A stretch of 60,939 nucleotides of DNA, the filler included, from Nemertoderma westbladi (lineage: Eukaryota; Animalia; Xenacoelomorpha), in the NCBI GenBank assembly GCA_032718475.1. It is 3 parts of 3 records of this genome, joined end to end, with 100 filler letters (N's around TTAATTAATTAA, not from the genome) between each part and the next. Parts side by side here need not be neighbours in the genome. Positions count along the whole stretch, not along the records: positions 1 to 21,663 come from JAUCBJ010003665.1; positions 21,764 to 51,138 come from JAUCBJ010005465.1; positions 51,239 to 60,939 come from JAUCBJ010003771.1. One strand, written 5' to 3'. Made by a program: the position numbers and the translations under genes. This document shows, piece after piece, positions 11,326-55,774 of this stretch. The notes beneath the pieces are model-generated. The model made no database searches. It was given only the letters and a program-made list of their open reading frames with translations, and was not told where the DNA came from. Positions within the stretch are counted from its first letter, which is position 1. Every line of letters starts with the position of its first letter.

Positions 11326-14300
11326 CTTGGTTTGTATGAGATCCAGTAAGGTAAACACACTCACCTTGGTTTGTATTAGATCCAGTAAGGTTGAGACACA
11401 CTTACCTTGGTTTGTATTAGATCCATTAAGGTTGAGACACACTTACCTTGGTTTGTATGAGATCCAGTAAGGTTGAGACACACTTACCTTGGTTTGTATG
11501 AGATCCAGTAAGGTTGAGACACACTTACCTTGGTTTGTATTAGATCCATTAAGGTTGAGACACACTTACCTTGGTTTGTATGAGATCCAGTAAGGTTGAG
11601 ACACACTTACCTTGGTTTGTAATAGATCCAGTAAGGTTGAGACACACTTACCTTGGTTTGTATTAGATACAGTAAGGTTGAGACACACTTACCTTGGTTT
11701 GAATTAGATACAGTAAGGTTGAGACACACTTACCTTGGTTTGTATTAGATCCAGTAAGGTTGAGAGACACTTACCTTGGTTTGTATTAGATCCAGTAAGG
11801 TTGAGACACACTTACCTTGGTTTGTATTAGATCCAGTAAGGTTGAGACACACACTTACCTTGGTTTGTAATAAATCCAGTAAGGTTGAGAAACACTTACC
11901 TTGGTTTGTATTAGATCCAGTAAAGTTGAGACACACTTACCTTGGTTTGTATTAGATCCAGTAAAGTTGAGACACACTTACCTTGGTTTGTATTAGATCC
12001 AGTAAGGTTGAGAAACACTTACCTTGGTTTGTATTAGATCCAGTAAAGTTGAGACACACTTACCTTGGTTTGTATTAGATCCAGTAAGGTTGAGAAACAC
12101 TTACCTTGGTTTGTATTAGATCCAGTAAAGTTGAGACACACTTACCTTGGTTTGTATTAGATCCAGTAAAGTTGAGACACACTTACCTTGGTTTGTATTA
12201 GATCCAGTAAAGTTGAGAAACACTTACCTTGGTTTGTATTAGATCCAGTAAAGTTGAGACACACTTACCTTGGTTTGTATTAGATCCAGTAAGGTTGAGA
12301 AACACTTACCTTGGTTTGTAATAAATCCAGTAAGGTTGAGACACACTTACCTTGGTTTGTATGAGATCCAGTAAAGTTGAGACACACTTACCTTGGTTTG
12401 TATTAGATCCAGTAAGGTTGAGACACACTTACCTTGGTTTGTATTAGATACAGTAAGGTTGAGACACACTTACCTTGGTTTGTATTAGATCCAGTAAGGT
12501 TGAGAGACACTTACCTTGGTTTGTATGAGATCCAGTAAGGTTGAGACACACTTACCTTGGTTTGTATTAGATCCAGTAAGGTTGAGAGACACTTACCTTG
12601 GTTTGTATGAGATCCAGTAAGGTTGAGAGACACTTACCTTGGTTTGTATTAGATCCAGTAAGGTTGAGAAACACTTACCTTGGTTTGTAATAAATCCAGT
12701 AAGGTTGAGAAACACTTACCTTGGTTTGTATTAGATCCAGTAAGGTTGAGACACACTTACCTTGGTTTGTATTAGATCCAGTAAGGTTGAGAGACACTTA
12801 CCTTGGTTTGTATGAGATCCAGTAAGGTTGAGAGACACTTACCTTGGTTTGTATTAGATCCAGTAAGGTTGAGAAACACTTACCTTGGTTTGTAATAAAT
12901 CCAGTAAGGTTGAGACACACTTACCTTGGTTTGTATGAGATCCAGTAAGGTTGAGACACACTTACCTTGGTTTGTATTAGATCCAGTAAGGTTGAGACAC
13001 ACTTACCTTGGTTTGTATTAGATCCATTAAGATTGAGACACACTTACCTTGGTTTGTATTAGATCCAGTAAGGTTGAGACACACTTACCTTGGTTTGTAT
13101 GAGATCCAGTAAGGTTGAGACACACTTACCTTGGTTTGTATGAGATCCAGTAAGGTTGAGACACACTTACCTTGGTTTGTATGAGATCCAGTAGGGTTGA
13201 GACACACTTACCTTCGTTTGCATGAGATCCAGTAAGGTTGAGACACACTTACCTTGGTTTGTATTAGATCCGGTAAGGTTGAGAGACACTTACCTTGGTT
13301 TGTATTAGATCCAGTAAGGTTGAGAAACACTTACCTTGGTTTGTAATAAATCCAGTAAGGTTGAGACACACTTACCTTGGTTTGTATGAGATCCAGTAAA
13401 GTTGAGACACACTTACCTTGGTTTGTATTAGATCCAGTAAGGTTGAGACACACTTACCTTGGTTTGTATTAGATCCTGTAAGGTTGAGACACACTTACCT
13501 TGGTTTGTAATAAATCCAGTAAGGTTGAGACACACTTACCTTGGTTTGTATGAGATCCAGTAAAGTTGAGACACACTTACCTTGGTTTGTATTAGATCCA
13601 GTAAGGTTGAGACACACTTACCTTGGTTTGTATTAGATACAGTAAGGTTGAGACACACTTACCTTGGTTTGTATTAGATCCAGTAAGGTTGAGAGACACT
13701 TACCTTGGTTTGTATGAGATCCAGTAAGGTTGAGAGACACTTACCTTGGTTTGTATTAGATCCAGTAAGGTTGAGAAACACTTACCTTGGTTTGTAATAA
13801 ATCCACTAAGGTTGAGAAACACTTACCTTGGTTTGTATTAGATCCAGTAAGGTTGAGAGACACTTACCTTGGTTTGTATGAGATCCAGTAAGGTTGAGAC
13901 ACACTTACCTTGGTTTGTATTAGATCCAGTAAGGTTGAGACACACTTACCTTGGTTTGTATTAGATCCATTAAGGTTGAGACACACTTACCTTGGTTTGT
14001 ATTAGATCCAGTAAGGTTGAGAAACACTTACCTTGGTTTGTAATAAATCCAGTAAGGTTGAGACACACTTACCTTGGTTTGTATGAGATCCAGTAAAGTT
14101 GAGACACACTTACCTTGGTTTGTATTAGATCCAGTAAGGTTGAGACACACTTACCTTGGTTTGTATTAGATCCAGTAAGGTTGAGACACACTTACCTTGG
14201 TTTGTATTAGATCCAGTAAGGTTGAGACACACTTACCTTGGTTTGTATTAGATACAGTAAGGTTGAGACATACTTACCTTGGTTTGTATGAGATCCAGTA

Positions 14301-17300
14301 AGGTTGAGACACACTTACCTTGGTTTGTATTAGATCCAATAAGGTAGAAACACACTTACCTTGTTTTGTATTAGATACAGTAAGGTTGAGACACACTTAC
14401 CTTGGTTTTGTATTAGATCCAGTAAGGTTGAGACACACTTACCTTGGTTTGTATTAGATCCATTAAGGTTGAGACACACTTACCTTGGTTTGTATTAGAT
14501 ACAGTAAGGTTGAGACACACTTACCTTGGTTTGTATTAGATACAGTAAGGTTGAGACACACTTACCTTGGTTTGTATTAGATCCAGTAAGGTTGAGAGAC
14601 ACTTACCTTGGTTTGTATTAGATCCAGTAAGGTTGAGACACACTTACCTTGGTTTGTATGAGATCCAGTAAGGTTGAGACACACTTACCTTGGTTTGTAT
14701 GAGATCCAGTAAGGTTGAGACACACTTACCTTGGTTTGTATTAGATCCAGTAAGGTTGAGAAACACTTACCTTGGTTTTGTATTAGATCCAGTAAGGTTG
14801 AGACACACTTACCTTGGTTTGCATGAGATCCAGTAAGGTTGAGACACACTTACCTTGGTTTGTATGAGATCCAGTACGGTTGAGACACACTTACCTTGGT
14901 TTGTATTAGATACAGTAAGGTTGAGACATACTTACCTTGGTTTGTATGAGATCCAGTAAGGTTGAGACACACTTACCTTGGTTTGTATCAGATACAGTAA
15001 GGTTGAGACACACTTACCTTGGTTTGTATTAGATCCTGTAAGGTTGAGACACACTTACCTTGGTTTGTATTAGATCCAGAAAGGTTGAGACACACTTACC
15101 TTGGTTTGTATTAGATCCAGCAAGGTTGAGAGACACATACCTTGGTTTGTATTAGATCCAGTAAGGTTGAGACACACTTACCTTGGTTTGTATTAGATCC
15201 AGCAAGGTTGAGACACACTAACCTTGCTTTGTATTAGATCCAGTAAGGTTGAGACATACTTACCTTGGTTTGTATTAGATCCAGCAAGGTTGAGACACAC
15301 TTACCTTGGTTAGTATTAGATCCAGCAAGTTTGAGAAACACTTACCTTGGTTTGTATTAGATCCAGTAAGGTTGAGACACACTTACCTTGGTTTGTATTA
15401 GATCCAGTAAGGTTGAGACACACTTACCTTGGTTTGTATTAAATCCAGTAAGGTTGAGACACAATTACCTTGGTTTTGTATTAGATCCAGTAATGTTGAG
15501 ACACACTTATCTTGGTTTGTATTAGATACAGTAAGGTTGAGACACACTTACCTTGGTTTGTATTAGATCCAGTAAGGTTGAGACACACTTACCTTGGTTT
15601 GTATTAGATCCAGTAAGGTTGAGACACACTTATCTTGGTTTGTATTAGATACAGTAAGGTTGAGACACACTTACCTTGGTTTGTATTAGATCCAGTAAGG
15701 TTGAGACACACTTACCTTGGTTTGTATTAGATCCAATAAGGTAGAAACACACTTACCTTGTTTTGTATTAGATACAGTAAGGTTGAGACACACTTACCTT
15801 GGTTTTGTATTAGATCCAGTAAGGTTGAGACACACTTACCTTGGTTTGTATTAGATCCTGTAAGGTTGAGAAACACTTACCTTGGTTTGTATTAGATACA
15901 GTAAGGTTGAGACACACTTACCTTGGTTTGTATTAGATCCAGCAAGGTTGAGACACACTTACCTTGGTTTGTATTAGATCCATTAAGGTTGAGACACACT
16001 TACCTTGGTTTGTATTAGATCCAGTAAGGTTGAGACACACTTACCTTGGTTTGTATGAGATCCAGTAAGGTTGAGACACACTTACCTTGGTTTGTATGAG
16101 ATCCAGTAAGGTTGAGACACACTTACCTTGGTTTGTATGAGATCCAGTAGGGTTGAGACACACTTACCTTGGTTTTGTATTAGATCCAGTAAGGTTGAGA
16201 CACACTTACCTTGGTTTGCATGAGATCCAGTAAGGTTGAGACACACTTACCTTGGTTTGTATTAGATCCAGTAAGGTTGAGACACACTTACCTTGGTTTG
16301 TATTAGATCCAGTAAGGTAGACATTAACCTTGGTTTGTATTAGATCCAGAAAGGTTGAGACACACTTACCTTGGTTTGTATTAGATCCAGCAAGGTTGAG
16401 AGACACTTACCTTGGTTTGTATTAGATCCAGTAAGGTTGAGACACACTTACCTTGGTTTGTATTAGATCCAGCAAGGTTGAGACACACTAACCTTGCTTT
16501 GTATTAGATCCATTAAGGTTGAGATACACTTACCTTGGTTTGTATTAGATCCAGCAAGGTTGAGACACACTTACCTTGGTTTGTATTAGATCCAGCAAGT
16601 TTGAGAGACACTTACCTTGATTTGTATTAGATCCAGCAAGTTTGAGAGACACTTACCTTGATTTGTATTAGATCCAGTAAGGTTGAGACACACTTACCTT
16701 GGTTTGTATTAGATCCAGTAAGGTTGAGACACACTTACCTTGGTTTGTATTAAATCCAGTAAGGTTGAGACACAATTACCTTGGTTTTGTATTAGATCCA
16801 GTAATGTTGAGACATAGTTACCTTGGTTTGTATTAGATACAGTAAGGTTGAGACACACTTACCTTGGTTTGTATTAGATTCAGTAAGGTTGAGACACACT
16901 TACCTTGGTTTGTATTAGATCCAGTAAGGTAGAAACACACTTACCTTGTTTTGTATTAGATACAGTAAGGTTGAGACACACTTACCTTGGTTTGTATTAG
17001 ATCCATTAAGATTGAGACACACTTACCTTGGTTTGTATTAGATCCAGTAAGGTTGAGACACACTTACCTTGGTTTGTATGAGATCCAGTAAGGTTGAGAC
17101 ACACTTACCTTGGTTTGTATGAGATCCAGTAAGGTTGAGACACACTTACCTTGGTTTGTATGAGATCCAGTAGGGTTGAGACACACTTACCTTGGTTTTG
17201 TATTAGATCCAGTAAGGTTGAGACACACTTACCTTCGTTTGCATGAGATCCAGTAAGGTTGAGACACACTTACCTTGGTTTGTATTAGATCCAGTAAGGT

Positions 17301-18624
17301 TGAGACACACTTACCTTGGTTTGTATTAGATCCAGTAAGGTTGAGACACACACTTACCTTGGTTTGTATTAGATCCAGTAAGGTTGAGACACACTTACCT
17401 TGGTTTGTATGAGATCCAGTAAGGTAGACACTTACCTTGGTTTGTATTAGATCCAGAAAGGTTGAGACACACTTACCTTGGTTTGTATTAGATCCATTAA
17501 GGTTGAGACACACTTACCTTGGTTTGTATTAGATCCAGTAAGGTTGAGACACACTTACCTTGGTTTGTATTAGATCCAGTAAGGTTGAGACACACACTTA
17601 CCTTGGTTTGTATTAGATCCATTAAGGTTGAGACACACTTACCTTGGTTTGTATTAGATCCAGTAAGGTTGAGACACACTTACTTTGGTTTGTATTAGAT
17701 CCAGTAAGGTTGAGACACAATTACCTTGGTTTGTATTAGAACCAGTAAGGTTGAGACACACTTACCTTGGTTTGTATTAGATCCATTAAGGTTGAGACAC
17801 ACTTACCTTGGTTTGTATTAGATCCAGTAAGGTTGAGACACACTTACCTTGGTTTGTATTAGATCCAGTAAGGTTGAGACACACACTTACCTTGGTTTGT
17901 ATTAGATCCAGTAAGGTTGAGACACACTTACCTTGGTTTGTATTAGATCCAGTAAGGTTGAGACACACTTACCTTGGTTTGTATTAGATCCAGTAAGGTT
18001 GAGACACACTTACCTTGGTTTGTATTAGATCCAGTAAGGTTAAGACACACTTACCTTGGTTTGTATTAGATCCAGTAAGGTTGAGACACACTTACCTTGG
18101 TCTGTATGAGATCCAGTAAGGTTGAGACATACTTACCTTGGTTTGTATGAGATCCAGTAAGGTTGAGACACACTTACCTTGGTTTGTATTAGATCCAGTA
18201 AGGTTGAGACACACTTACCTTGGTTTGTATTAGATCCAGTAAGGTTGAGACACACTTACCTTGGTTTGTATTAAATCCAGTAAGGTTGAGACACACTTAC
18301 CTTGGTTTGTATGAGATCCAGTAAGGTTGAGACACACTTACCTTGGTTTGTATTAGATACAGTAAGGTTGAGACACACTTACCTTGGTTTGTATTAGATC
18401 CAGTAAGGTTGAGACACACTTACCTTGGTTTGTATTAGATCCAGTAAGGTAGACACACTTACCTTGGTTTGTATTAGATCCAGTAAGGTTGAGACACACT
18501 TACTTTGGTTTGTATTAGATCCAGTAAGGTTGAGACACACTTACCTTGGTTTGTATTAGATCCAGTAAGGTTGAGACACACTTACCTTGGTTTGTATGAG
18601 ATCCAGTAAGGTAGACACACACTT
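11326..18624 (-). repeat. 41-bp tandem array (about 178 copies) of the beta-adaptin exon-1 3' end plus 5' splice site
   Basis: Minus-strand unit is GTAAGTGTGTCTCAACCTTACTGGATCTAATACAAACCAAG. It contains the codons for (C)[11 protein letters not shown] and AAG|GTAAGT. Confidence 0.97.
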
Positions 18625-19794
18625 CTCAGCCGACTGTTCCACCTTTATCGCACACCGTCCGATCGCGCGAACCGACTTCCTAACGAAGTCGACATCCACC
18701 TCAGTAGCGTACTCCTTGAGTTCGGCCAACACCTGCGTGATGTTCGACTGGTTCGCCAACCTAATCATAATATCCAACTTCTCAAGCTTCACGTAGATGG
18801 GGTCGTTGTACTTCACGAAGAAAACCTTCATCTCCTGTTTGAGAATCTCCGGTCGTTTCTGCACGATTAGGTTGATATTCCGTAACGCGATATACTGTAT
18901 CTCCGGCTCGCCGCTCAACAGGGTCACCAACGGCGGGGCCAACTTCTTTATTAAACCCTGGAAGAAGTCAGTAGAGGAATCCATGACCTCCATGAACTTC
19001 ATGATTCCTTTAACCGCTGAGAGAACCACCGCGGAATTAGTGTGACACAACCGAGGAAGGATTCTCTCGCAGATACTCTGGGCGTCTCGGTCGTCTTTGG
19101 GGTTGTAAGTGGCGAGGGAATCCAAGATAAACACCTGCCCCCATTCGGTGCACTCGTTCAACGCGGTAATCAACTTATTAACTGTCTGGGAATTGTTGAT
19201 TTGATGGAGATCTTGATTGGGAGATGCGTCGTTTATCTCGGACAAGGCGGCCACAGCGTTGGCTACCACCATAGGGTTGGAGTCGGTCAGCATATCCTTG
19301 AGTTGATCTAGGAAGCCTTGATCCTCTACTAATTGGTTGTTAATATCGTAGAGTTTAGCAACGCTAACAGCAGCTGTCTTCCTCACATATGGGTCCTCGT
19401 CTCTCAAGCACTTCCTCAGCGGTTCGCACAGATATTCAGTGATCTTATCTACGCGAATACAACCCATGGTTCGCACAGCCAGCGCTCTAATCAGCGGGTT
19501 CTGATCTTCGCAATCCTTTACAAAGGTATTCACAGCCATAATGGCCATATCGGGTTGCGATTTCGCGTAGCTCATAAGATACAGATAAACGAGTTTCTTT
19601 AACTCAATGTTGTCCGTTTGCATGCAGTTAACCACATCTGGAAACAGTTGAGAGACATCTTTACCTATCGTCATAGATGCGATAACCTTCTTAACTGCTT
19701 CTTTCTTTTTTTCTTTCTTATCGCTATTTAATTCGGATTTTAATTCAAATATTTCGCCTTTCTTTGTTGTTGTAAAATATTTTGAATCCGTCAT
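18586..19794 (-). CDS. AP1B1: AP-1/AP-2 complex beta subunit (beta-adaptin), exon 1 (403 codons)
   Basis: [42 protein letters not shown]...[12 protein letters not shown], donor AAG|gtaagt at 18586/18585. Joins exon 2 as QTK|VNYVV for 930 aa in total. Confidence 0.96.
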
Positions 19795-21663: not shown

Positions 21664-21763
21664 NNNNNNNNNNNNNNNNNNNNNNNNNNNNNNNNNNNNN
21701 NNNNNNNTTAATTAATTAANNNNNNNNNNNNNNNNNNNNNNNNNNNNNNNNNNNNNNNNNNNN
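21664..21763. other. Artificial contig spacer N44-TTAATTAATTAA-N44
   Basis: Exactly 100 nt with a six-frame stop linker, identical to 51139-51238. Confidence 0.95.
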
Positions 21764-24471
21764 GGGGGTTGATTGGGGTAGGCAGCGACGCCCGCTCGCC
21801 TAAATATAAACTCATTATAATATGGTTAAACTCATATATAGCAGATATGACGGAGTTGATAGAAGATGGTCTTGGTATCGGGGAGCGATATACTCTACTT
21901 TTGCAAGCGTTTGTTGATAGCTTAATACGCGGCGACGTTAGTCCAACTGCTGCGGAGGACGATGGTCGTTATATCGAACCGCCAATGTCCCAAGTGCAGC
22001 TCTCGCGAGAGTTAGACTATAGAAAATTCGCTGCTCGATATACGCAGCGTAATGGTACGTATATGGGCTTCTTAACTACTGGTCATTCTATCAATTTACA
22101 CAATACGGACTATGTCGACTATATATCCTGCCCAGCGGAGTCGGAAACATAAACTGAAATTCGAATGCGAAAATTCTATTCGAAATCGGCTCGAAAGAAA
22201 AGACATTAAAGAAACAAATAAACGCGGTAACTCCAACATATATTTGGAATTCTTGATAGAAGCATTGTAACAACAAATAAGTATCATCCGCGTTTCCCCT
22301 ACCAGACGTGCGTCTTTGGTATTATTACGGTAAATGCCCTAGACCTAGCCAATAAACGGAAAGACATAAACATCCACGGAAACGTTGTGTTAAACACAGT
22401 TGTGTTCGTTATATTTACTGGAGTTTCGAGCGAAACTTGTTTGACGTATCACCTATGCTCACTCGGCTCTAACGATCCTAGAGTAAACCTACGATCAGAG
22501 TCCCGGAATACTCGGTCAAACCTCCTCATTCCTTAGTTGGACCTCAGACCTGTGATCCTGGTGGTGTCGCGGATCCTCGCGGACGGTATTCACTGTTCAA
22601 GATCTAGTGCTACCCTAATAATTAATCGGTAACACTCCGACAGTGATTTCTAGCTAGCCGCCCATCTTACCTAGCCGGATTATGACGCAGACACCTAATA
22701 TCACTATCCAACCGTATGGTCGTCCCGTTTAACGCGATACAACCCTTCATCAAGGTGAAGGAGAGCGTTGTACGAAACGAGTTAAACGCTATTCTATAAA
22801 GATCAAAAAGAAACCTGCGTTTGTTCAGATAAACGTAAGTTACAACAGTAAGTCCAATCGATAAACAAATTGGCCTTATCTCAGTTCGATTGGGAAACCT
22901 CGAATCTCAAAGAAGATATCAAGCTTAGAAAACCCTATTCTCTGCGAGAGTTTTGGACGAACGTATCCCATGACAAGCGGAGGAAAATCAGCTCGAGGAG
23001 AAGCATATCGAAATAGACGAGACACCGACCGTAAACCCAAACCTTTTAATGCAATCATATTGCACCCTTCACCCAGGAGTTATGGCCCTCCTAGTAAAGT
23101 GGCTTCCCCCAAAGAGAAAATGACTCTTGCTAGCTTCAAGAAACTGCGTAAACGCCGTCCGCGCAAGAAAGACTAACTGTTTAGAGTATTTTTATATTTT
23201 AGAAACTGTGATTTTGTATATTTTATAGACTTAAATCCCATTTTCTGGGAGCGGTGTAAAAGCTTTTGTGGGATAACTGATTCGTTTGCCTTGTTGGCCA
23301 GTTCCCCCCCGGTCGCTAGAATACTCTAAAGGGGATCTATAGTTAAAATAGTGCAAGCTACCAACTTATTGGCTGATTTGCTGTACGCAGGTATCTGGGC
23401 TCTGTTTAATCAGCCAACCAGCCTAGGAAGGTTGCGTCATAGCCTTGTTTTTGTATCTCCCAATAGAATTTGAGTTAGCCTTGATTTTGACCTATCACAG
23501 AGCTACTGAACTGAAATTTTCCTATCTCACTGCTCTTTCTCTGTGTTGAACGGGAGCTTCGTGGAATAAGGGTAGTTGGTATCCTCGTATAGAGCAGTAG
23601 TCACGAGTTTTTCAAAGCCACGAAAGAACGGCTTTTTAGTGTTTTGTGCTTTCTGCTTTTTAGCTCAACACTAGTAGGTTTAATTATAAGGACATATATC
23701 CTTTAACTCATGGAATCACTGCAATTTCGTAATCACTGGCGGCTGTGAATATCACACGGCTTTTAATAACTGCTGCTAAAAATTACCTGCTCAATCAATA
23801 CTGTATACTGCTATTTGTTGTCGGTTATTCATTATATTTGTTGATGAATTATTATATTGGAATAACGAGAAATAACCCCGAAAACCCAATATTCTTGATA
23901 TACCGAAGGTAAGAGAGAAAGGTTATCAATAACGATTGTGACTTATGTTAAAGTGGTTTGAAGTGAATCTAATGTTATTTGATAGACCCTACATGAGTCA
24001 GTCTGTGTTCCTTTTATATGTGACTAAAATCAGTGAAGATTGGCAGATTAGTGTGCAGTATTGTGCAGCATTGTGTATGAGTGAGTCTGTTAAAGAAGCA
24101 ATTCCTAAAGAATGCGCCATATATGTGAATTATAATTAAGCCATATCGTTGTGAGTAGTTTAAGTCATAACTCTGTTTATATAGATAAAGCGCCACGTCC
24201 TAAAGGAACTGTTAATATTCCCGAAGGTGAATAATATTGTCAGAGATTATATAATACTGTCAGTCGAATAATACATTAGGCTTACATAGCAATAAAATTA
24301 AACCGTCGAACCCAATCTCCCGGGAATATCCAGCGGGTGAATGATCGCGCACAGATTGGTTTCTACTAGTGTAGTGAATCAAATACTTGTCATAGGCTAA
24401 AAAGCGATTTAATATCTAGAAGACATCTTAATTTGGCGGATTAAACTGCCAAAGGTCTGAAAGCGCGAACA
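21764..24471 (+). mobile_element. Possible 3' end of a decayed LTR retroelement abutting the satellite
   Basis: Coding-like but broken sequence ends ...KLRKRRPRKKD*. A purine tract AAAGGGGA lies at about 23328 and AATAAA at 24291. The block ends ...GAACA exactly at the array edge. No diagnostic domain was recognised. Confidence 0.25.
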
Positions 24472-27400
24472 TAAGGTTAGTCAGATAATTACAGACGAGA
24501 CGCGGGATCAGCTAAAGTTAGTTAGATAATTACAGACGCGACGCGAGATCAGCTAAGGTTAGTCAGATAATTACAGACGAGACGCGGGTTCAGCTAAGGT
24601 TAGTCAGATAATTACAGACGAGACGCGAGATCAGCTAAGGTTAGTCAGATAATTACAGGACGAGACGCGGGATCAGCTAAGGTTAGTTAGATAATTACAG
24701 ACGAGACGCGAGATCAGCTAAGGTTAGTCAGATAATTACAGGACGAGACGCGGGATCAGCTAAGGTTAGTCAGATAATTACAGGACGAGACGCGGGATCA
24801 GCTAAGGTTAGTCAGATAATTACAGGACGAGACGCGAGATCAGCTAAGGTTAGTTAGATAATTACAGACGAGACGCGGGATCAGCTAAGGTTAGTTAGAT
24901 AATTACAGACGCGACGCGAGATCAGCTAAGGTTAGTTAGATAATTACAGACGCGACGCGAGATCAGCTAAGGTTAGTCAGATAATTACAGGACGAGACGC
25001 GGGATCAGCTAAGGTTAGGCAGATAATTACAGGACGAGACGCGGGATCAGCTAAGGTTAGGCAGATAATTACAGGACGAGACGCGAGATCAGCTAAGGTT
25101 AGTTAGATAATTACAGACGAGACGCGGGATCAGCTAAGGTTAGTTAGATAATTACAGACGCGACGCGAGATCAGCTAAGGTTAGTCAGATAATTACAGAC
25201 GAGACGCGAGATCAGCTAAGGTTAGTCAGATAATTACAGGACGAGACGCGGGATCAGCTAAGGTTAGGCAGATAATTACAGGACGAGACGCGAGATCAGC
25301 TAAGGTTAGTTAGATAATTACAGACGAGACGCGGGATCAGCTAAGGTTAGTTAGATAATTACAGACGCGACGCGAGATCAGCTAAGGTTAGTCAGATAAT
25401 TACAGACGAGACGCGGGATCAGCTAAAGTTAGTCAAATAATTACAGACGAGACGCGAGATCAGCTAAGGTGAGTTAGATAATTACAGGACGAGACGCGAG
25501 ATCAGCTAAGGTTAGTTAGATAATTACAGGACGAGACGCGGGATCAGCTAAAGTTAGTCAAATAATTACAGACGAGATGCGAGATCAGCTAAGGTGAGTT
25601 AGATAATTACAGGACGAGACGCGAGATCAGCTAAGGTTAGTCAGATAATTACAGACGCGACGCGAGATCAGCTAAGGTTAGTCAGATAATTACAGGACGA
25701 GACGCGGGATCAGCTAAGGTTAGTCAGATAATTACAGACGAGACGCGGGATCAGCTAAGGTTAGTCAGATAATTACAGGACGAGACGCGGGATCAGCTAA
25801 GGTTAGTCAGATAATTACAGACGAGACGCGGGATCAGCTAAAGTTAGTCAAATAATTACAGACGAGACGCGAGATCAGCTAAGGTGAGTTAGATAATTAC
25901 AGGACGAGACGCGAGATCAGCTAAGGTTAGTTAGATAATTACAGACGAGACGCGGGATCAGCTAAGGTTAGTTAGATAATTACAGACGCGACGCGAGATC
26001 AGCTAAGGTTAGTCAGATAATTACAGGACGAGGCGCGGGATCAGCTAAGGTTAGTCAGATAATTACAGACGCGACGCGAGATCAGCTAAGGTTAGTCAGA
26101 TAATTACAGGACGAGGCGCGGGATCAGCTAAGGTTAGTCAGATAATTACAGACGCGACGCGAGATCAGCTAAGGTTAGTCAGATAATTACAGGACGAGAC
26201 GCGGGATCAGCTAAGGTTAGTCAGATAATTACAGGACGAGGCGCGGGATCAGCTAAGGTTAGTCAGATAATTACAGACGAGACGCGGGATCAGCTAAGGT
26301 TAGTCAGATAATTACAGACGAGACGCGAGATCAGCTAAGGTTAGTCAGATAATTACAGACGCGACGCGGGATCAGCTAAGGTTAGTCAGATAATTACAGA
26401 CGAGACGCGGGATCAGCTAAGGTTAGTCAGATAATTACAGACGAGACGCGGGATCAGCTAAGGTTAGTCAGATAATTACAGACGAGACGCGAGATCAGCT
26501 AAGGTTAGTTAGATAATTACAGACGAGACGCGGGATCAGCTAAGGTTAGTTAGATAATTACAGACGCGACGCGAGATCAGCTAAGGTTAGTCAGATAATT
26601 ACAGACGCGACGCGAGATCAGCTAAGGTTAGTTAGATAATTACAGACGCGACGCGAGATCAGCTAAGGTTAGTCAGATAATTACAGACGCGACGCGAGAT
26701 CAGCTAAGGTTAGTCAGATAATTACAGGACGAGGCGCGGGATCAGCTAAGGTTAGTCGGATAATTACAGACGCGACGCGAGATCAGCTAAGGTTAGTCAG
26801 ATAATTACAGGACGAGGCGCGGGATCAGCTAAGGTTAGTCAGATAATTACAGACGAGACGCGAGATCAGCTAAGGTTAGTTAGATAATTACAGACGAGAC
26901 GCGGGATCAGCTAAGGTTAGTTAGATAATTACAGACGCGACGCGAGATCAGCTAAGGTTAGTCAGATAATTACAGACGCGACGCGAGATCAGCTAAGGTT
27001 AGTTAGATAATTACAGGACGAGACGCGAGAACAGCTAAGGTTAGTCAGATAATTACAGACGCGTCGCGAGATCAGCTAAGGTTAGTCAGATAATTACAGG
27101 ACGAGGCGCGGGATCAGCTAAGGTTAGTCAGATAATTACAGACGAGACGCGGGATCAGCTAAGGTTAGTCAGATAATTACAGACGCGACGCGAGATCAGC
27201 TAAGGTTAGTCAGATAATTACAGGACGAGGCGCGGGATCAGCTAAGGTTAGTCAGATAATTACAGACGAGACGCGAGATCAGCTAAGGTTAGTTAGATAA
27301 TTACAGACGAGACGCGGGATCAGCTAAGGTTAGTTAGATAATTACAGACGAGACGCGAGATCAGCTAAGGTTAGTTAGATAATTACAGACGAGACGCGGG

Positions 27401-40109: not shown

Positions 40110-41330
40110 TAAACATTCAGTTACCAGTGGCTTTAGTTGACCTTTAGTCCAAATTGGTGGTGGCTTTTTCCCTTTTAACATCCGGTTGCAAACATCCAAT
40201 AATGGTCTGTTTAGCACTCCTGTTTTCCATACCTTTCCAGGTATTTCATCTAATCCATTCGCTTTACGATTGGACATGCTTTTAATGCTTCTTTGGAGTT
40301 CGGCGGGTGTGAAGTCCCCTGTTTCTATAGGTAGTGTCTTGTCATATATTTCCCTTGTAGGGCTGACCTCGATGTTTGGTGGCTACCCAAGCAAGTTGCT
40401 GAAGTGATTTTTCCACTTCCCAACACGTTCTTCAGGACTATCAACTTTGAGGCGCCCCTTTGCACAACTTTTCCGACCAGATACCTCATTTACAGTATGT
40501 TGCTGTATGTGAGCAGTTGTAATTGCTTCAGTTTTATCCTGTATGTACTTCTCTTGGCTGATGTTGTAGGCTAATTTAAGATCTTCCTTAGCTTTCTCAA
40601 CCATATTGATGTTTTATGTTGTTGGTTGTTCGATTTTTACTTTGTAGGCTATCTTAAGATCTTCTCTTTTACAAGTAACCTCAGAGTCTTGCCATGGCAC
40701 ATAATGTTTTCGTTGGGGTTTCTGGGGAATATGCCTCTTAGCTGATTCATTGTGGGCTGTTATTACAATTCTGGTATATTGAATCGGTGGACTGGTCTTC
40801 ATCCATTGACTGAAGTACTTCAAAGCGGTTTTGAACTTCTACTGTATAAGCATCCTTTACAGCATTGTCAGTTCTGAGTTTCTCCCAGTCATAGTTGATT
40901 TGCTTGCTTGTCCTGGGTTTGCTGGCTCTCAAACTGAGTCTGATCTCTGCAGTCACAATTCTGTGGTCCGAACCAATTAGGTTGAACGAGCTGTGTGCCT
41001 CGCAGTTACAGTAATCATGCTGTTTCTCCACTTTTTGTTTATAAAGATGTAATCCAGCTGTGTTTTGGTCCCGTTAGGGTATTGAAAGGTCAATAGCTTC
41101 CTTCCCCTTGCTCTTTTCGAATGTGGTGTTTGTTGGTATCAATTCACATTCTTCCATTATGTCTAAGAGTAAGCACCCATTTATGTTCGAACTGGTGTTA
41201 TAGGTGTAACCCTTGATGTCTTCTGGGCCAATTTGAGCATTCTGGTCACCAGCAATGACTTTGACATTGTGTTTCGGAATTTCCTTTATAAGTCCATTCA
41301 GATCTTCATACAATTTTGGGGGTGGATATA
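40110..41330 (-). mobile_element. Decayed RTE-type LINE (endonuclease region) in EHD intron
   Basis: IPKHNVKVIAGDQNAQIG, GSDHRIVTAEIRLSLRA, YTVEVQNRFEVL and WKNHFSNLLG, frameshifted. Confidence 0.8.
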
Positions 41331-43087
41331 AATATCGATTTGGGGAATGCTCAGTTCTGCTGTTCTGCTGCACTGAGCTGCATATTACCTACAGTACATT
41401 ATTAATGCCGGAGTGGCTGTCTGGTGGGAACCAAACAGACCACAACTGACACACTGGTATGGGGTGGGTCAATAATGACAAATAGTTGTTGTCGTCGTTG
41501 TCTTCATCTGCATTAATATTTTGACATGCTAATAACTTTGTCGGATTTAAAGCTGTCGAGTTGAAAATTAATTTTTAGGCATCAATAAGACCAAAAGTTG
41601 ATATTTTTAGAGACTTTCAGACACCATCACTTCAACCATCCGCTCGAGGGCGACATGTCTCAAAGTGAAATCCTTGACTCATTCCGTTATTTATGATCCG
41701 ATCAAGCTGGAATTGTCAGATATTTGCTAGAACACATTTTGTGTCTTTGTGGGTTCGGTAATCGATCTGCAGATTTCCAGTCTACCACTAGAGGGCGAAA
41801 TGAATGAAAGTGATAACCTTCTCTCATTTCGTAATTTGTTATCCATTCAGGCCAAAACTTGGTAGATATACATTCTATACCTCAGACTGAGTTTTTGTGA
41901 GGGCTTAAACTGACTGCAGTTACCCAGTCTGCCTCTTTGGTGATAAAGTGATTAGGGGACATCTGTTTAGATTTTTGGCTTAAATGCAAGGAAAACTAAT
42001 AATATATTTCAACTACTACTACTGTGGGATTTTATTATTAGTTTTAAGTACGTCTAGTAGGCCAACCCAAACGAAGATTTACTTAACGGCCAGTTTATTG
42101 AAGCTCAATTAATGTGCAGTCCTGGTCATGTCCTCTAGATCTGAGGGTTGCTCGCTGCCGACATTTATTGATACCTATAACTGGTACAGCCTCCACAATA
42201 CATAAAAAACCACCACTCTAACGATTCATTTTGCGCCGTTTTATTTAATGTTGCCTACGCCCTTTCCAATATTTTCCGACGCCTCTGATTATACCGGTTG
42301 CTTGAGTACTGGTGGTGAGGTGGGACTTGTTGGACCGGTTCGGAATAAGGGAGCTGGAAGTATGTATAGGGAGTGGAGAGACGGGGGATTTTGATAAGTT
42401 AATTACGTTTAGATCAATTAAAAACACTTTTCTTAAAGTAAATCACTTGAACTAATTAAAAACTATAATGGAATGGGGTATGGGGATTGCAGCTGTATAA
42501 TTTTTTTAAGTATAATTATTTCAAACTTATACTAGAAAACAATTAATTTCCATTCTAGGGCAAGCAAAAAAATGCTGTTTTTTACCTTAATCAACTTAAT
42601 TAATTGCTTTTATCTTAGCCTCTCGAAGGCCACACACAAATACAACTTGGAAAATTCATAAACTTTTGCCAAACAACATGTCTACCAAGTTTGGGTAGAT
42701 TTCATCGAGGATTGGCCGAGTTATTAACGTTCAAAATTGCACACTACAGAACGACAGGTTCATTAATGGTACCCTACGCTAAGGCTCACCTTCCTTCGTG
42801 GCTCGCCCCACAGCACAGGGTGGTCCCTCTCCACATTAGCTTATGTTAATTTTTGTTCCACAAAATTTCGTAGACATAATGTTTCACTGCTGCCAGAATT
42901 CTTGATATGATTACACCAAATATTGATATGACTTGGCTATACACGAATATCTGTAGTACCTGTCCTTGAGAGGAGGTAGGTAGGGGGGGGGGGGGGGGGG
43001 GGGGGGCATACATGCCCTGTTCCCTGTACTGTACACACTGCATAGTGCATATACTGTATGTAATAATTTATGGCCCTGTGAATTTAG

Positions 43088-43207
43088 ATTCACAAAGAAA
43101 TTACTGGAGGGATATTCGGGAATACATTCAACGATGTTCACGACCGCAGTACGATGGATTCTCATACGGTTGAAGAAGAAAGACGGGCTGCAAAGAATAT
43201 TAGTTGA
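43088..43207 (+). CDS. EHD1: EHD-family protein, probable terminal exon (no EH domain)
   Basis: aatttag|IHKEITGGIFGNTFNDVHDRSTMDSHTVEEERRAAKNIS*, a phase-0 join to QDPN. EITGGIF resembles the EHD linker VVKGGAF. Confidence 0.55.
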   Translation: MHKEITGGIFGNTFNDVHDRSTMDSHTVEEERRAAKNIS

Positions 43208-45439
43208 CGAGTTTCTAGATGATGGATATAACTTTGAACAAGCCGAAGCGAAGTGTGCTAACTGAATTAACACATTCAATCAGTGGACTGTTGTTTTTAG
43301 ATATTTCATTTATATTATTTTGAGGCTGAATATTTTACTTTGCTTCTTGAATTCATCAACATGATTTGTAATTTGCCATCTTATAATTTATTAGTAACTA
43401 AATAACAACGAAAATAATATTAAAAAAATTAATAACGGAAATTTATAAGCTCTGCACATCCATCAGTAAAGGTAAAATCCCTGTTAAAAACAAAATAAAG
43501 AAATCATTGTAAGATCTCATAATCGGAGGTTTGTCATGAGTTACTTAATCTGTTCCATAGCGAAGCGGAAATTTGGGACAATATTATTGGGTAACTCATA
43601 ACTCATCAGTCATTATTAAGATGACTGAATTTTATATATGACTGAGCTACCCTACATAGATAATTTAGTACATATTTTTAAAACATTTGGGTAGACTTCA
43701 CCAAATGGTTGCGCTCTTAAAGGGGGTCTTAAACATAGCAAAAGAGAAAATTGCCATAGCAACACCTTTTATAGTAGATATGATGAGTTAAAATTTATGA
43801 AAGATTAGTATGTTGGATATGAAGAATTTAATGGTATATTTAGCAACGGGCTTTAAACGGGTGTAATGCATTTGCAGTGGTCGTAGCGTCATGGGATTAG
43901 AGTCTACCACTAATATATCAAGTCGAAGGAACAATATGCATTACTTGCTTGCTTGCAGTTGCCATGGCAACGGGTAACTTTGGCTAGACACGGGGTATAT
44001 ATTAACCGTAGCGTCATTAAATCAACCTCCACCCCCACTATTTCGAGTATACGGAAAAATATGTAATATGTTTCAGTTTCTAGATGCCATGGCAACATGT
44101 CAGCATTGTTAACAAAGTGTATTTCATATCACTTAGCTGTTTTGAATACATAAAAGAGCGCATTTTGAAAGATAAGTGAGGTTTACATGATATATATATA
44201 TTATCAAGGATGTTATTACGTTACGTTACGGTATCTTTTCAGGAATACCGTAGCTCAATATTTTTCCGTAACGTAAACCGTAACGTAATAGCTTTTTCAA
44301 TACCGTAACGTAATATTACTGTATATTTTTACCGTAATAAAGTAACGTAATAGAGTAATATTTGTGTTAGCTACCAAGAAATCATTTTGGACAAAAAATT
44401 AAATCTTTCGAGAAAAAACTTTAACTTTCACTTGCACGTTCTATACTAATTCAATATAAAGTTAATTTCTTTAATAGGTTTTGTTTGTCTGTACACGGTA
44501 TCCTTATAGCCAGCTTCCTGGCTTCTCCGGTTATTTATGATAAAGTTTTAATTAATAATTAATTAATAGTTAAATTAAGTTTTAATTAAACATTAAGTTT
44601 TAATTAATGTTAGGCTAACTAGGGCTACTGACTGAACTATTTATACTGAGTCCCTGATCTATCCTAGCTGTAGCCTATAACAACGCAGTATGCTGTAATG
44701 GTATAGATCATCGATTTACAGGACAGCTTAGCAGGGTGTGCGGACATTCCCCCCCCCCCCAGACACTTCCCCCCGGACAGCTCCCCCCCCCCGTTCAAGT
44801 AGGACACTCCCCCCCCCCCCCACCCTCGACAGCTCTGAACTTCGCACATTCTTATTTTTCATTTTGTAAGGTAAACGGACCGCTTGTATCCAGACAAGTT
44901 GTATCCAATTTTCCTTTCTTAGCTCAGAAAGTGATCTTTTGCATCCCGATTTTACATTTTGTATCCAAGTTTTATTTATGGATTTTATCAATGCAATTAC
45001 ATTGTATTGTTTGCTAATCTTTAAACAATTAATTAGATGACCTATAAATTCCATCCCCCGAATGATATACTGTTTTTATTAACTATAGAATTATAATAAT
45101 TAATTGTTTTAATTATAGGTATTATTTTTTAATAGTCTTCTTCAAATTGTAGCAGATGGGGATGACATATTATCAGATGATACCTCTCCAAGGGAAAATC
45201 GACATGCGTCGACCTGTATTCTGTGTTCAGCATTACATATTGATAAATTAATTAAATTTCCTGGTTACTTGCAATATTTTTAATAGGATTTTGTTGAATT
45301 ATATAATATTGTAGTAATTTATATATTAATTTGGTTAACATTCAATACAGCTCCTACTTTAGGCTTAGTCAATTTATTATCTGATGATACAAACATGAAT
45401 TAATTATTTCAAAATGGTCTTAATGATGGGGTGATGATA

Positions 45440-46302
45440 ACTCCACCTACTGGCTCCAGAAGTCGAGGAAATCCTGCCAAGTACAGTACCTAACTGATCT
45501 AGACTTTGCTGATGACTTAGGAGTACTCTCAGAATCACTAGAGGGAGCCCAACGGCTCCTCAGCTCATTAGAACATGCTGCTTCTAGTGTTGGTCTTTTT
45601 ATTAACTCCAGAAAGACCAACATTTTGACAGTTAACTTTGAAAGTCATCAGCAAGTCTCTGATCGGATGAGCATAAGCTCAAAGGATGGTATGCTTGAGC
45701 ATGTGGACGATTTCTGTTACCTGGGATCAAGGATCCGGAAGTCAGGTGAGGGAGGACCTTCGAATACGTAAGGGAAAGGCATGGGCAGCCTTGAATAGGC
45801 TTTCCAGGATTTGGAAGTCACCGAGAATTAATCGGAAACTTAAGGTCCGGTTATTTAGAGCAGCAGTAGTTCCAGTACTCCTCTATGGGAGTCCATGCCG
45901 GGCTCTAACTGCTGAAGACACCAAATCTCTGGATGGCACAACGCCGGGTTCATTGTGTCAAGTACAATGCACACATCTCCAACCAGACACTATATAACAT
46001 TGGAGATGTCTCATTTGTTCCCCCAAGCTTGACACTAGAACAAAATCGCCTCCGCTTTGCAGGACATTGCTTTCGCCGTGAGGACCAGCCAGTGCATAAT
46101 CTTGTACTTTGGCAGCCTCATGGAGTGACAGCTCATGACTTTCTTGAGACGCATCTTAAAGGTGGCCTTGAAGATGCGGATGATCTAGCAAATGTCGTGG
46201 GTGATAGGAGAGTTGTGGCGGCGCAATTTTGTAGAAAAGCCGGCACAGCATTCTTAAAAATGCAGATGCACTGCAGCATGCCGATCCTAGTAGTAGTAGT
46301 AG
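45440..46302 (+). mobile_element. 5'-truncated RTE-type LINE (RT C-terminus and 3' tail)
   Basis: DLDFADDLGVLSESLEGAQRLL...GLFINSRKT, RIRKGKAWAALNRLSRIWKS...KVRLFRAAVVPVLLYG and RLRFAGHCFRR, ending in (TAG)n. Confidence 0.85.
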
Positions 46303-49121: not shown

Positions 49122-49892
49122 CTATATAAATAATTCAAGTGCAATTAAATCAGGTACGGTGGAATGGAAGGGGTGTTTGTTGGATGATGTATGGGATGCT
49201 GAGTGTTGGGCACTCAGACACTCGTCTCCTACAATGATACACCCCATACCAGCATTAGTGGCACCGAGGCAATCGGTATTCACCTCGTTACCGATATGTA
49301 TTGCGTTCAGGGGATTAACATTGCCTAGTTTAGTAAGTGTGCTAAGGAATATACCCCTATCTGGTTTAAGTGCACCATATTCTACAGATGTTAACACACA
49401 TCTGAAGAAATCGTTTATACCTAAATGGGAGAGTACCGAGCTAGTCCGTTCGTCTGAGTTGGAGACGACCGCTAAGGGAATGTTTGCGTCCTTCAGCAAT
49501 CCTAACAATCGACGACAACCGGGAATAAGTTCCCAATGCTTGTCCGTAGAGAACTCGTAGTACAGTTGGGTTGCAGTTCGGCTAACGGCGGCATTGTCAT
49601 CCGCTCCCGAATCTATTAACGTTCTCCTAACGAGTGTGTCCCACCAACCCTCACCACTGTCATAATCCTTGAGATGATGGCCAAAGTTCGGCGATTCTGC
49701 GCTGAGAATCTTAAAGTTTCGCGCAAAATTGAGAGAAACTGTCTTTTCGTTTGCGTTTAGGCGAATACCATTTGATTTAGCAGCGTTCGCGTAGCTTTCG
49801 CCAACACTACAACGCAGATTAACCAAAGTTCCACCGAAGTCGAATGTTACCGCTTTAATATTTCGATGAGAGAAGCCGATAATAGTTTTCAT
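49122..49892 (-). CDS. HDHD3: HAD-superfamily hydrolase, HDHD3/REG-2-like, single exon (256 aa from first ATG)
   Basis: Motif I VTFDFGGTL followed by SVGESYA, PNFG, WW..LV, motif II VVSNSDER, motif III KPDRGIF and motif IV HIGNEVNTDCLGA..AGM. Confidence 0.85.
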   Translation of the reverse strand: MKTIIGFSHRNIKAVTFDFGGTLVNLRCSVGESYANAAKSNGIRLNANEKTVSLNFARNFKILSAESPNFGHHLKDYDSGEGWWDTLVRRTLIDSGADDNAAVSRTATQLYYEFSTDKHWELIPGCRRLLGLLKDANIPLAVVSNSDERTSSVLSHLGINDFFRCVLTSVEYGALKPDRGIFLSTLTKLGNVNPLNAIHIGNEVNTDCLGATNAGMGCIIVGDECLSAQHSASHTSSNKHPFHSTVPDLIALELFI

Positions 49893-51138: not shown

Positions 51139-51238
51139 NNNNNNNNNNNNNNNNNNNNNNNNNNNNNNNNNNNNNNNNNNNNTTAATTAATTAANNNNNN
51201 NNNNNNNNNNNNNNNNNNNNNNNNNNNNNNNNNNNNNN
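51139..51238. other. Artificial contig spacer N44-TTAATTAATTAA-N44
   Basis: Identical to 21664-21763. Confidence 0.95.
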
Positions 51239-51326: not shown

Positions 51327-51518
51327 ATCGCAGGAATACGGATGTTAGACCAACCCTATATGACGGATTACATCGAGGCTGCTTCGATGGGACACGCGCC
51401 CGATCTAATAGACATTTATAGTGCGAGTTGGGGGCCGACAGACGATGGTAAAACCGTGGATGGACCCAGAGAGAAAACCGTTGCGAAGATGGCCTACGGG
51501 GTCAACAAAGGAAGAAAG
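51327..51518 (+). CDS. PCSK2: Prohormone convertase 2, exon (5' part of gene is outside this contig)
   Basis: tacag|IAGIRMLDQPYMTDYIEAASMGHAPDLIDIYSASWGPTDDGKTVDGPREKTVAKMAYGVNKGRK|gtaggc. An alternative acceptor at 51334 is possible. Confidence 0.92.
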
Positions 51519-52162
51519 GTAGGCCTGCTTGTTATTGTTGATAAATTTGTATACTTACGCCCACACTACTCGGGGCAAATAGTTTCATATACAGTATTAA
51601 TTCAAATTAACAACTTTGAAAGGGAATTACGGGAATATCAAATAGAGATAATAATAAAGTATATTATATTCTTTCTTTATTCATCGGGAAAAAGAGAAAA
51701 AAGGAAAAAAAAACAGCGAAAGTAAATAAGAGCAATAAAAGCTAGGTTAGTGGATGAATTCTTGTAAATAATTAGAAATACTATAAATCCGCGATTTTAA
51801 CTTTAGAAATTTTTACTACTGTAAATACGTGATTTTCTAGTTATTGTAAATTTGACCATCTCATTATTCTTTTAATTATAATTGTTTAAGACGAGTGCTC
51901 AAGTAATTGTACTGTATATCCCAATCGGCCAGCAATGCGCCCCGTTGTTGTATATTTTTTTCCCCGGAGACTATAACGTTCAGTTATAGTCAGTAATTAA
52001 TTATTATTGCAGAATTGTAGATTTTTTTTGTGGTCATTTTTTTCAATAATATATTGTATATATTAACGGATGTACTGTATTAATGTATTTGAAGTGAATT
52101 AGGCTTATTTTGATGAATAAATATTATATTTAGAATAAAAATTAATATTTTATTTAGAGACG

Positions 52163-55100
52163 CACAACTTTACTGTTGTTTTATTTACCTTAGGATAAGG
52201 GGAACATTTACTGTTGTTTTATTTACCTTCTAGGGCAAGGACAACATTTTCTGTTGTTTTATTTACCTTCTAGGGTAAGGACAACATTTACTGTTGTTTT
52301 ATTTACTTTCTAGGGCAAGGACAACATTTTCTGTTGTTTTATTTACCTTCTAGGGCAAGGACAACATTTACTGTTGTTTTATTTACCTTCTAGGGCAAGG
52401 ACAACATTTACTGTTGTTTTATTTACCTTCTAGGGTATGGACAACATTTAATGTTGTTTTATTTACCTTCTAGGGTAAGGACAACATTTACTGTTGTTTT
52501 ATTTACCTTCTAGGGCAAGGACAACATTTTCTGTTGTTTTATTTACCTTCTAGGGCAAGGACAACATTTACGGTATTTACCCTCTAGGGTAAGGACAACA
52601 TTTACTGTTGTTTTATTTACCTTCTAGGGCAAGGACAACATTTACTGTTGTTTTATTTACCTTCTAGGGTAAGGACAACATTTACTGTTGTTTTATTTAC
52701 CTTCTAGGGCAAGGACAACATTTTCTGTTGTTTTATTTACCTTCTAGGGCAAGGACAACATTTACGGTATTTACCCTCTAGGGTAAGGACAACATTTACT
52801 GTTGTTTTATTTACCTTCTAGGGTATGGACAACATTTAATGTTGTTTTATTTACCTTCTAGGGTAAGGATAACATTTACCTTTGTTTTTTTTATCTTCTA
52901 GGGTAAGGACAACATTTACTTTTGTTTTATTTACCTTAAGGTAATGGGAATATTTACTGTTGTTTTATTTACCTTCGAGGGTAAGGACAACATTTACTGT
53001 TGTTTTATTTACCTTCTAGGGTAAGGACAACATTTACTGTTTTTTTATTTACCTTCTAGGGTAAGGACAACATTTACTGTTGTTTTATTTACCTTCTAGG
53101 GTAAGGACAACATTTACTGTTGTTTTTTTTATCTTCTAGGGTAAGGACAACATTTACTGTTGTTTTATTTTCCTTCTACGATAAGGACAACATTTACTGT
53201 TGTTTTATTTACCTTCTAGGGCAAGGACAACATTTACTGTTGTTTTATTTACCTTCTAGGGTAAGGATAACATTTACTGTTTTTTTTTATCTACTAGGGA
53301 CAAGGACAACATTTACTTTTGTTTTATTTACCTTAGGTTATGGACAACATTTACTGTTGTTTTATTCACCTTCTAGGACAAGGACAACATTTACTGTTGT
53401 TTTATTTACCTTCTAGGGCAAGGACAACATTTACTGTTGTTTTCTTTATTTCTTTAACTTATAGGGTAAGGACAACATTTACTGTTGTTTTATTTACCTT
53501 AGGGTAACGGAAACATTTACTGTTGTTTTATTTACCTTCTAGGGCAAGGACAACATTTACTGTTGTTTTATTTACATTCTAGGGCAAGGACAACATTTAC
53601 TGTTGTTTTATTTACCTTCTAGGGTAATGATAACATTTACTGTTGTTTTTTTTATTTTCTAGGGTAAGGACAACATTTACTGTTGTTTTATTTTCCTTCT
53701 AGAATAAGGACAACATTTACTGTTGTTTTATTTACCTTCTAGGGCAAGGACAACATTTCCTGTTGTTTTATTTACCTTAGTGTAAGGGGAACATTTACTG
53801 TTGTTTTATTTACCTTCTAGGGCAAGGACAACATTTTCTGTTGTTTTATTTACCTTCTAGGGCAAGGACAAAATTTACTGTTGTTTTATTTATCTTCTAG
53901 GGTAAGGACAACATTTACTGTTGTATTTTTATCTTCTAGGGTAATGACAACATTTACTTTTGTTTTATTTACCTTCTAGGGTAAGGACAACATTTACTGT
54001 TGTTTTATTTATCTTCTAGGGTAAGGACAACATTTACTGTTGTTTTATTTATCTTCTAGGGTAAGGACAACATTTACTGTTGTTTTTTTTATCTTCTAGG
54101 GTAATGACAACATTTACTTTTGTTTTATTTACCTTCTAGGGTAAGGACAACATTTACTGTTTTTTTTTATCTTCTAAGGTAATGATAATATTTACTGTTG
54201 TTTTATTTACCTTCTAGTGTATGGACAACATTTACTGTTGTTTTATTTACCTTCTAGGGTAAGGACAACATTTACTGTTGTTTTATTTACCTTCTAGGGC
54301 AAGGACAACATTTACTGTTGTTTTATTTGCCTTCTAGGGCAAGGACAACATTTACTGTTGTTTTATTTACCCTCTAGGGTAAGGACAACATTTACTGTTG
54401 TTTTATTTACCTTCTAGGGAAAGGACAACATTTTCTGTTGATTTATTTACCTTCTAGGGTAATGACAATATTTACTGTTGTTTGATTTACTCTCTAGGGT
54501 AAGGACAACATTTACTGTTGTTTTATTTACCCTCTAGGGTAAGGACAACATTTACTGTTGTTTTATTTACCTTCTAGGGTAATGACAACATTTACTGTTG
54601 TTTTATTTGCCTTCTAGGGCAAGGACAACATTACTGTCGTTTTATTTACCTTCTAGGGAAAGGACAACATTTTCTGTTGATTTATTTACCTTCTAGGGTA
54701 ATGACAACATTTACTGTTATTTTATTTGCCTTCTAGGGCAAGGACAGCATTTACTGTTGTTTTATTTACCCTCTAGGGTAAGGACAACATTTACTGTTGT
54801 TTTATTTACCTTCTAGGGAAAGGAGAACATTTTCTGTTGTTTTATTTACCTTCTAGGGTAAGAACAACATTTTCTGTTGATTTATTTATCTTCTAGGGTA
54901 AGGACAACATTTACTGTTGTTTTATTTACCTTCTTGGGTAAGGACAACATTTACTGTTGTATTATTTACCTTCTAGGGTATGGACAACATTTACTGTTCT
55001 TTTACTTACCTTCTAGGGTAAGGACAACATTTACAGTTGTTTTATTTACCTTCTAGGGCAAGGACAACATTTACTGTTGTTTTATTTACCTGCTAGGGTA

Positions 55101-55774
55101 TGGACACCATTTACTGTTGTTTTATTTACCTTCTGCTGGGTAATGACAACATTTACAGTTGTTTTATTTACCTTCTAGGGCAAGGACAACATTTACTGTT
55201 GTTTTATTTACCTGCTAGGGTATGGACAACATTTACTGTTGTTTTATTTACCTTCTAGGGTAAGGACAACATTTACTGTTGTTTTATTTACCTTCTAGGG
55301 CAAGGACAACATTTACTGTTGTTTTATTTACCTGCTAGGGTATGGACAACATTTACTGTTGTTTTATTTACCTTCTGCTGGGTAATGACAACATTTACAG
55401 TTGTTTTATTTACCTTCTAGGGCAAGGACAACATTTACTGTTGTTTTATTTACCTGCTAGGGTATGGACAACATTTACTGTTGTTTTATTTACCTTCTAG
55501 GGAAAGGACAACATTTACTGTTGTTTTATTTACCTTCTAGGGTAAGGACAACATTTACTGTTGTTTTATTTACCTTCTAGGGTAAGGACAACATTTACTG
55601 TTGTTTTATTTACCTCTAGGGTAAGGACAACATTTACTGTTGTTTTATTTACCTTCTAGGGCAAGGACAACATTTACTGATGTTTTATTTATCTTTTAGG
55701 GTAAGGACAACATTTACTGTTGTTTTATTTACCTTGTGTGGTTTTATTTACCTTAGGGTAAGGGGAACATTTAC
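52163..55774 (+). repeat. 40-bp tandem array (about 90 copies) of the PC2 3' splice site plus exon start
   Basis: Unit TGTTGTTTTATTTACCTTCTAG|GG(T/C)AAGGACAACATTTAC. The last copy is the real acceptor ccttag|GGTAAGGGGAACATTTACGTTTGG (GKGNIYVW). Confidence 0.96.

Follow-up and report, generated by a model that had tools for sequence, protein, structure and literature searches.

Kilobase-scale minisatellites built from exon–intron junctions in three genes of Nemertoderma westbladi

When a long tandem array repeats the exon–intron boundary of the very gene that contains it, how did the repeat come to arise there, and how is one splice site picked from among so many copies? Both questions are raised by a 60,939-nucleotide window of the Nemertoderma westbladi assembly, consisting of three contigs separated by N spacers at 21664-21763 and 51139-51238. 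Tandem Repeats Finder (TRF) delimits four long arrays in it: A1 (11326-18624, 41 bp × 178), A2 (24472-32568, 41 bp × 195.8, or ~196 copies), A3 (35952-39576, 27 bp × 134.3) and A4 (52164-55735, 40 bp × 89.7, or ~90 copies). Individually 3.6-8.1 kb long, they sum to 22,593 bp, 37% of the window, and are the top four by copy number among the ten arrays for which TRF gives a unit of 27-68 bp. A prior sequence-only reading had placed every array above 2 kb in three genes on three contigs, and this stands, the largest array after these four measuring 1.4 kb (7064-8457). It had also described four unrelated arrays, each taking in a splice site and the adjacent exon codons, a description borne out by the TRF spans, the anatomy of the units and a 14-mer comparison. 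All four units span the host gene's own exon–intron boundary (A2 by way of an exon end recovered from RNA), those of A1, A2 and A3 combining an exon end with its donor and that of A4 an acceptor with its exon start. Within the window, 14-mers of A1-A3 are confined to their own spans and those of A4 have five isolated matches outside theirs, none inside A1-A3; pairwise unit alignments rose above shuffles in one case of ten (A1 with A4, score 20 against a null maximum of 19). The units of the four arrays are mutually unrelated, and the same unit at several loci, as in a dispersed satellite or transposon-borne family, was not found within the window.

A1 (11326-18624, minus strand, 178 copies) lies in a beta-adaptin (AP-1/AP-2 beta) gene whose two coding exons, exon 1 at 18586-19794 (minus strand, 403 codons, Adaptin_N at 3-386) and exon 2 at 9156-10739 (minus strand, from its open reading frame and Pfam), encode a protein of 930 aa. 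The source of the 41-bp unit is the last ~39 nt of exon 1, with the authentic donor after 18586; the unit is almost wholly exon-derived, and the array fills 7260 nt of a 7846-nt intron, the sole coding intron of the gene. Read-through into the array meets a stop at codon 10 and the frame is kept only from the first donor, while the Pfam profile continues across the exon joint from position 386 to 389. The terminal copy of A1 is accordingly predicted, from the reading frame, to be the functional donor.

The second contig carries A2 and A3 in a single plus-strand gene that is EHD-like by DUF5600 and by matches to EHD2 and EHD4; a search for the host's own EHD protein gave no match at E≤0.01 among five candidates. 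Exon B (32686-32862, 59 codons) is the acceptor partner of the A2 intron, exon C (35833-35967, 45 codons) has its authentic donor after 35967, and a candidate terminal exon D (43088-43207), called from sequence and with no Pfam or PDB support, would apparently end the gene without an EH domain. A2 (24472-32568, plus strand) joins ~15 nt of exon end to ~26 nt of donor-side intron in 196 copies, the 194 units that were cut comprising 126 of 41 bp and 68 of 42 bp; A3 (35952-39576, plus strand) repeats a 27-bp unit, 16 nt of exon end and 11 nt of intron start, in 134 copies. Transcript evidence comes from run X3, which is labelled 'DNA?' and which we take as RNA-like because of five GT..AG joints in the third gene, PC2-like, and a poly(A) end; this is one sample of assembled contigs, from which rare forms drop out and in which decay would hide mis-splicing. 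In its EHD contig (881 nt, depth 803), 32862 is spliced to 35833 and the contig leaves at 35967, the first A3 donor, continuing for 372 further letters unlike the stretch. At its 5' side is a loose end of 197 nt with final codons K-R-A-R-S-A-K, the last 15 nt of which match 88 of 190 A2 units at 14 of 15 positions and none exactly. A2 derives from an EHD-like exon missing from the contig, as had been claimed, and the X3 contig supplies the end of that exon.

The 5' edge of A2 adjoins a possible LTR (23255-24471, plus strand) with TG...CA ends and a purine run before it, whose insertion would account for the source exon being off the contig. Contig 2 opens (21764-24471) with unexplained plus-strand ORFs upstream of this possible 1.2-kb element, at 21766-22149 and 22865-23173, which have no Pfam match and Atlas scores <0.9. 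At the start of A3, X3 depth in the bin 35912-36020 is 432.7, ~20 over the 413 given by the EHD contig alone, an excess that may be pre-mRNA, or a minor RNA contig or read-through entering the array. A3 as a coding repeat or a stop-bearing terminal exon was rejected as the main form, since the main RNA contig exits at 35967. The A3 unit makes nine codons in frame, and the first intronic unit (35968-35994) is among the few with TAG, so that read-through or the use of any decoy would meet a stop immediately.

On the third contig, A4 interrupts a gene with a Pfam Peptidase_S8 (subtilase) match, a convertase that its translation suggests to be PC2. The exon upstream of the intron (51327-51518, plus strand, from its open reading frame and Pfam) ends at an X3 loose end, the intron runs from 51519 to 55756, and the downstream exon (55757-55952, plus strand) is given by an RNA contig and by translation. 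The array, extended to 52164-55774 (plus strand), repeats in ~90 copies a 40-bp unit of polypyrimidine tract, AG and ~18-20 nt of exon start, with the authentic acceptor before 55757. The X3 PC2 contig (depth 482) enters at 55755/57, from the end of exon 51327-51518, and bin depth at the acceptor (249.3) is that of the PC2 contig by itself, which indicates that the last A4 copy is the acceptor and that no contig lies on neighbouring decoys.

The arrays retain their splice signals, with GT intact in 175 of 177 intronic A1 units, 196 of 196 A2 units and 132 of 134 A3 units, and with 86 decoy YAG sites in the ~90 units of A4. Hundreds of near-identical decoys had been proposed from the sequence, and these counts agree, the authentic exon-adjacent site being the one used in RNA, as read directly from X3 contigs, at the A3 donor and A4 acceptor; that the terminal copy is functional in three arrays is likewise upheld by RNA at A3 and A4 and, for A1, suggested by the ORF. 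At A2, regular splicing is seen as a clean exon–exon joint in X3, a single RNA-like run; at A3 a minor entry into the array is possible. Judged against the consensus, the decoys rival or surpass the true sites: a full 9/9 match to the donor consensus is shared by 163 A1 decoys and the true site; in A2, 178 of 196 sites reach 8/9, with AAG where the RNA exon end has AAA; and most A4 decoys have 12/15 pyrimidines against 11/15 at the true acceptor. The choice can therefore not rest on strength and likely follows position, the first donor after the exon and the last acceptor before it probably being picked by scanning or exon definition. In older globin work, a duplicated site adjoining an intact exon was reportedly preferred. 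Experiments on F7 support first-donor scanning and were made with 5-9 sites (PMC1557585).

Decoy use would bring a stop at codon 3 in A2, at codon 6 in A3 and after each of the 86 A4 decoys. Given an early stop after every decoy, mis-spliced RNA would be decayed, and its clearance by nonsense-mediated decay would leave the arrays close to neutral. Decoy positions +1 to +6 show no excess of change, and splice columns erode no faster than others, which fits drift; this column comparison gave no sign of selection against decoys.

How, then, did the arrays arise? We think it probable that these are four mirage-type minisatellites, in which a seed at a junction was duplicated and expanded inside the intron while the exon-adjacent site continued to be used. 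Their units of 27-42 bp fall within the reported minisatellite range, 10-160 bp (PMC3087553). Each array opens and closes in the same short word, which suggests seeding between microhomologies: a 27-42 bp piece across the junction was likely tandem-duplicated between direct repeats of 3-9 nt. Growth and homogenisation to 90-196 copies would have followed, likely by unequal exchange or slippage. Units diverge from their consensus by 2.7-5.3%, and runs of identical units at a lag exceed shuffles in A2 and A4 and do not in A1 and A3 (block-duplication test). Far-end units of A1 and A4 are closer to the authentic junction than the consensus is, as reported for the boundaries of mirages (PMC3087553), whose boundary units escape homogenisation, with no evident effect in A3. 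Such arrays would be tolerated as long as the exon-adjacent site wins and wrong choices meet stops.

Two readings would deny the arrays this history, one by making them products of assembly and the other by making them the origin of their introns. That the assembler inflated short repeats is extremely improbable: lengths and copy numbers are indeed as assembled, coming from the assembly alone, and each of X1-X3 carries a flag as a potential source of it, but DNA-run contigs bridge array edges to unique DNA with zero differences (X1 and X2 over 32529-33650 at A2; X2 and X4 over 55706-56090 at A4), and summed depth at three edges, a multi-copy signal rather than a copy number, lies far above the flanks (X1, 1080 against ~28; X4, 2386 against ~60; X1, 587 against 25; X2, 3059 against 11). 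Depth at the A2 edge differs between X1 and X2, which we do not read as polymorphism; in PC2, X1 and X4 depart from the window at many sites, which means that at least one sample carries other alleles. Each array also holds 25-57 unit variants with recurring diagnostic changes, and we conclude that the arrays are real and well supported, with lengths as assembled. The second reading, that the introns arose when an exonic AG/GT was duplicated in tandem (Rogers-type gain), has been proposed for mirages (PMC3087553) and for human internal repeats (PMC2812944), and the almost wholly exonic A1 unit in the only coding intron of beta-adaptin is what it would lead one to look for. The three measurable introns, though, all depart from the form such a gain would give, in which the intron is the duplicated unit and both sites come from the repeat. 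Once the array is taken away, these introns still hold 586, 3511 and 666 nt of unrelated sequence, each with a separate opposite splice site, lengths that match or slightly exceed those of the six ordinary introns in the window (292-2970 nt), and the units carry intron-type bases and not the next exon. The unique remainders argue that the arrays grew within introns and did not form them, and we regard intron gain as very unlikely.

The preferred history of seed duplication and unequal exchange does not account for why junctions should be favoured. Kilobase arrays are found at four of 21 junctions, of which 20 lie in the contigs and one is that of A2; conversely, four of the five arrays with units of at least 27 bp and at least 20 copies sit on junctions. 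If the arrays are collapsed, the probability that a 41-bp seed placed at random covers a junction is 0.023, giving binomial values of 1e-6 for four arrays in five and 1e-4 for four in twelve. The tie between arrays and junctions drawn in the sequence-only reading is thus far above chance inside the window, by a test that is post hoc, on a window chosen for the pattern and a junction list that is incomplete for UTR exons, so the excess concerns this window and not the genome. Microhomology was rejected as the cause of junction choice: the 17 other junctions are all bridged by direct repeats of 3-6 nt as well, so such repeats do not select these four. It is possible, though we lean against it, that mutation or growth is itself targeted to junctions, as the sequence-only reading proposed, with breaks, R-loops or recombination at the junctions of transcribed genes producing more seeds or larger expansions. 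This would add to the history given above and does not replace it. It would meet the in-window excess and the ranking of A1-A4 as the four largest of ten comparable arrays (1 in 210 by rank), and the generating mechanism of amphioxus mirages is called unclear (PMC3087553). Set against it are the single, selected window with its incomplete junction list; hairpin seeding, rejected because DNA fold z at the four seed junctions (-1.0 to +1.4) is not below that of the 17 others; and the lack of a second copy within 150 bp at each of the other 17 junctions, in a test to which the A4 site was negative too. The units, moreover, combine exon with intron and not exon with exon, which gives no indication of a spliced-mRNA template. 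Its lineage-wide extension would make junctions the chief source of kilobase satellites, through seeding or amplification tied to transcription and splicing, with a good part of all introns (here 4 of 21 junctions) carrying 100-200 decoys that are ignored by position alone; this seems to us unlikely. Quite unlikely, too, is a filter on survival, by which long intronic arrays persist best when they carry splice signals, for example if bound U1 or U2AF were to offset repeat silencing or premature polyadenylation. The retention of GT across A1, A2 and A3 would suit such a filter, as would a donor-like word in 53 places in the acceptor array A4 and a count of zero sense-strand poly(A) signals in all arrays against 3.4/kb in other intron sequence; yet conservation at donor columns does not exceed that of the median other column, the T of the A4 word is altered in 35% of units, and the poly(A) absence rests on four units, for which chance alone gives it about half the time.

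The repeat class itself has been described before, and what is unusual here is the size of the arrays and the fact that the four at junctions are the largest of ten. Mirages are known in amphioxus at Adh3, the globins BflGb6 and BflGb9, troponin C and PGBD5 (PMC3087553; PMC3902484). As in the arrays above, their tandem units are exon–intron boundaries, of donor and acceptor types, at several loci per genome, with normal splicing kept, boundary units escaping homogenisation and an origin called unclear (PMC3087553). BflGb6 has 3-6 units, against 90-196 copies and 3.6-8.1 kb here (PMC3087553). In the narrow sense a mirage host is a cephalochordate, and the host here is not amphioxus: among the best 120 of 1021 matches to its CFAP298 the highest identity is 64%, these matches being spread over molluscs, fish, tunicates and annelids, and Branchiostoma is absent from those listed with a name. 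Human junction VNTRs form a second precedent, comprising F7 IVS7 (37 bp × 5-9), 6-16 (25 pseudo-sites), CBS IVS13 (15-20), LMNB2 (100 bp × 10-15) and PDGF (81 bp × 16-18) (PMC1557585). Their first unit likewise straddles the boundary and their decoy donors are identical, splicing taking the donor furthest upstream and, in 6-16 and CBS, two further sites as well (PMC1557585). The present arrays differ in having ~4 to 40 times more decoys and in that one, A4, is acceptor-side; the A1 decoys are perfect-consensus donors, of a class able to shift splicing in the F7 experiments (PMC1557585), and the true A1 site is perfect too. Internal repeats of human duplicated genes share units of ~30 bp at boundaries; they average ~4 units and often alter gene structure or create introns (PMC2812944), whereas the arrays here lie within introns, leave unique remainders and show no protein change. 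We found no genome-wide study of junction arrays or their enrichment in a literature search that mostly excluded subscription journals.

Among the published cases compared, these are the largest junction minisatellites, with 90-196 copies against at most ~25 pseudo-sites (PMC1557585) and 3-6 units (PMC3087553). They offer natural tests of position-based choice at donors and at acceptors, the decoys on either side matching or exceeding the true site in strength. Should the excess prove true genome-wide, this genome would allow testing of why such repeats arise at junctions. The arrays can also mislead gene prediction, above all A3, which is in frame.

Other repeats lie beside the arrays. The fifth array (7064-8457, 49 bp × 28) lies ~700 bp past the stop of beta-adaptin; read on the minus strand, it begins immediately after a pyrimidine-rich tract and CAG, and its units are without that tract. 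By eye its head is tRNA-like, and a tRNA-derived repeat was rejected, with no ARAGORN gene and no Rfam match at E≤5. In the EHD B–C intron, 33552-35203 holds one or more high-copy dispersed or nested elements, probably MITE-like, with very high DNA-run depth and inverted 15-bp subterminal arrays (33687-33927 and 34378-34657); a different 15-bp array lies at 6103-6626. A 38-bp × 4 repeat (35646-35797) stops 35 nt before the exon C acceptor, excluding it, and run X1 has zero cover over 35794-35911. Downstream of A3, fragments at 39960-41400 (minus strand) and 45400-46200 (plus strand) look by eye like broken non-LTR retroelements, and a related piece apparently recurs near 57890-58500, a region of very high depth in the DNA runs. 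CFAP298 and a HAD-family hydrolase (4808-5680 and 49122-49892, both minus strand) have intronless coding sequence and, with the one-intron beta-adaptin (9156-19794, minus strand), make an intron-poor set beside the intron-bearing PC2.
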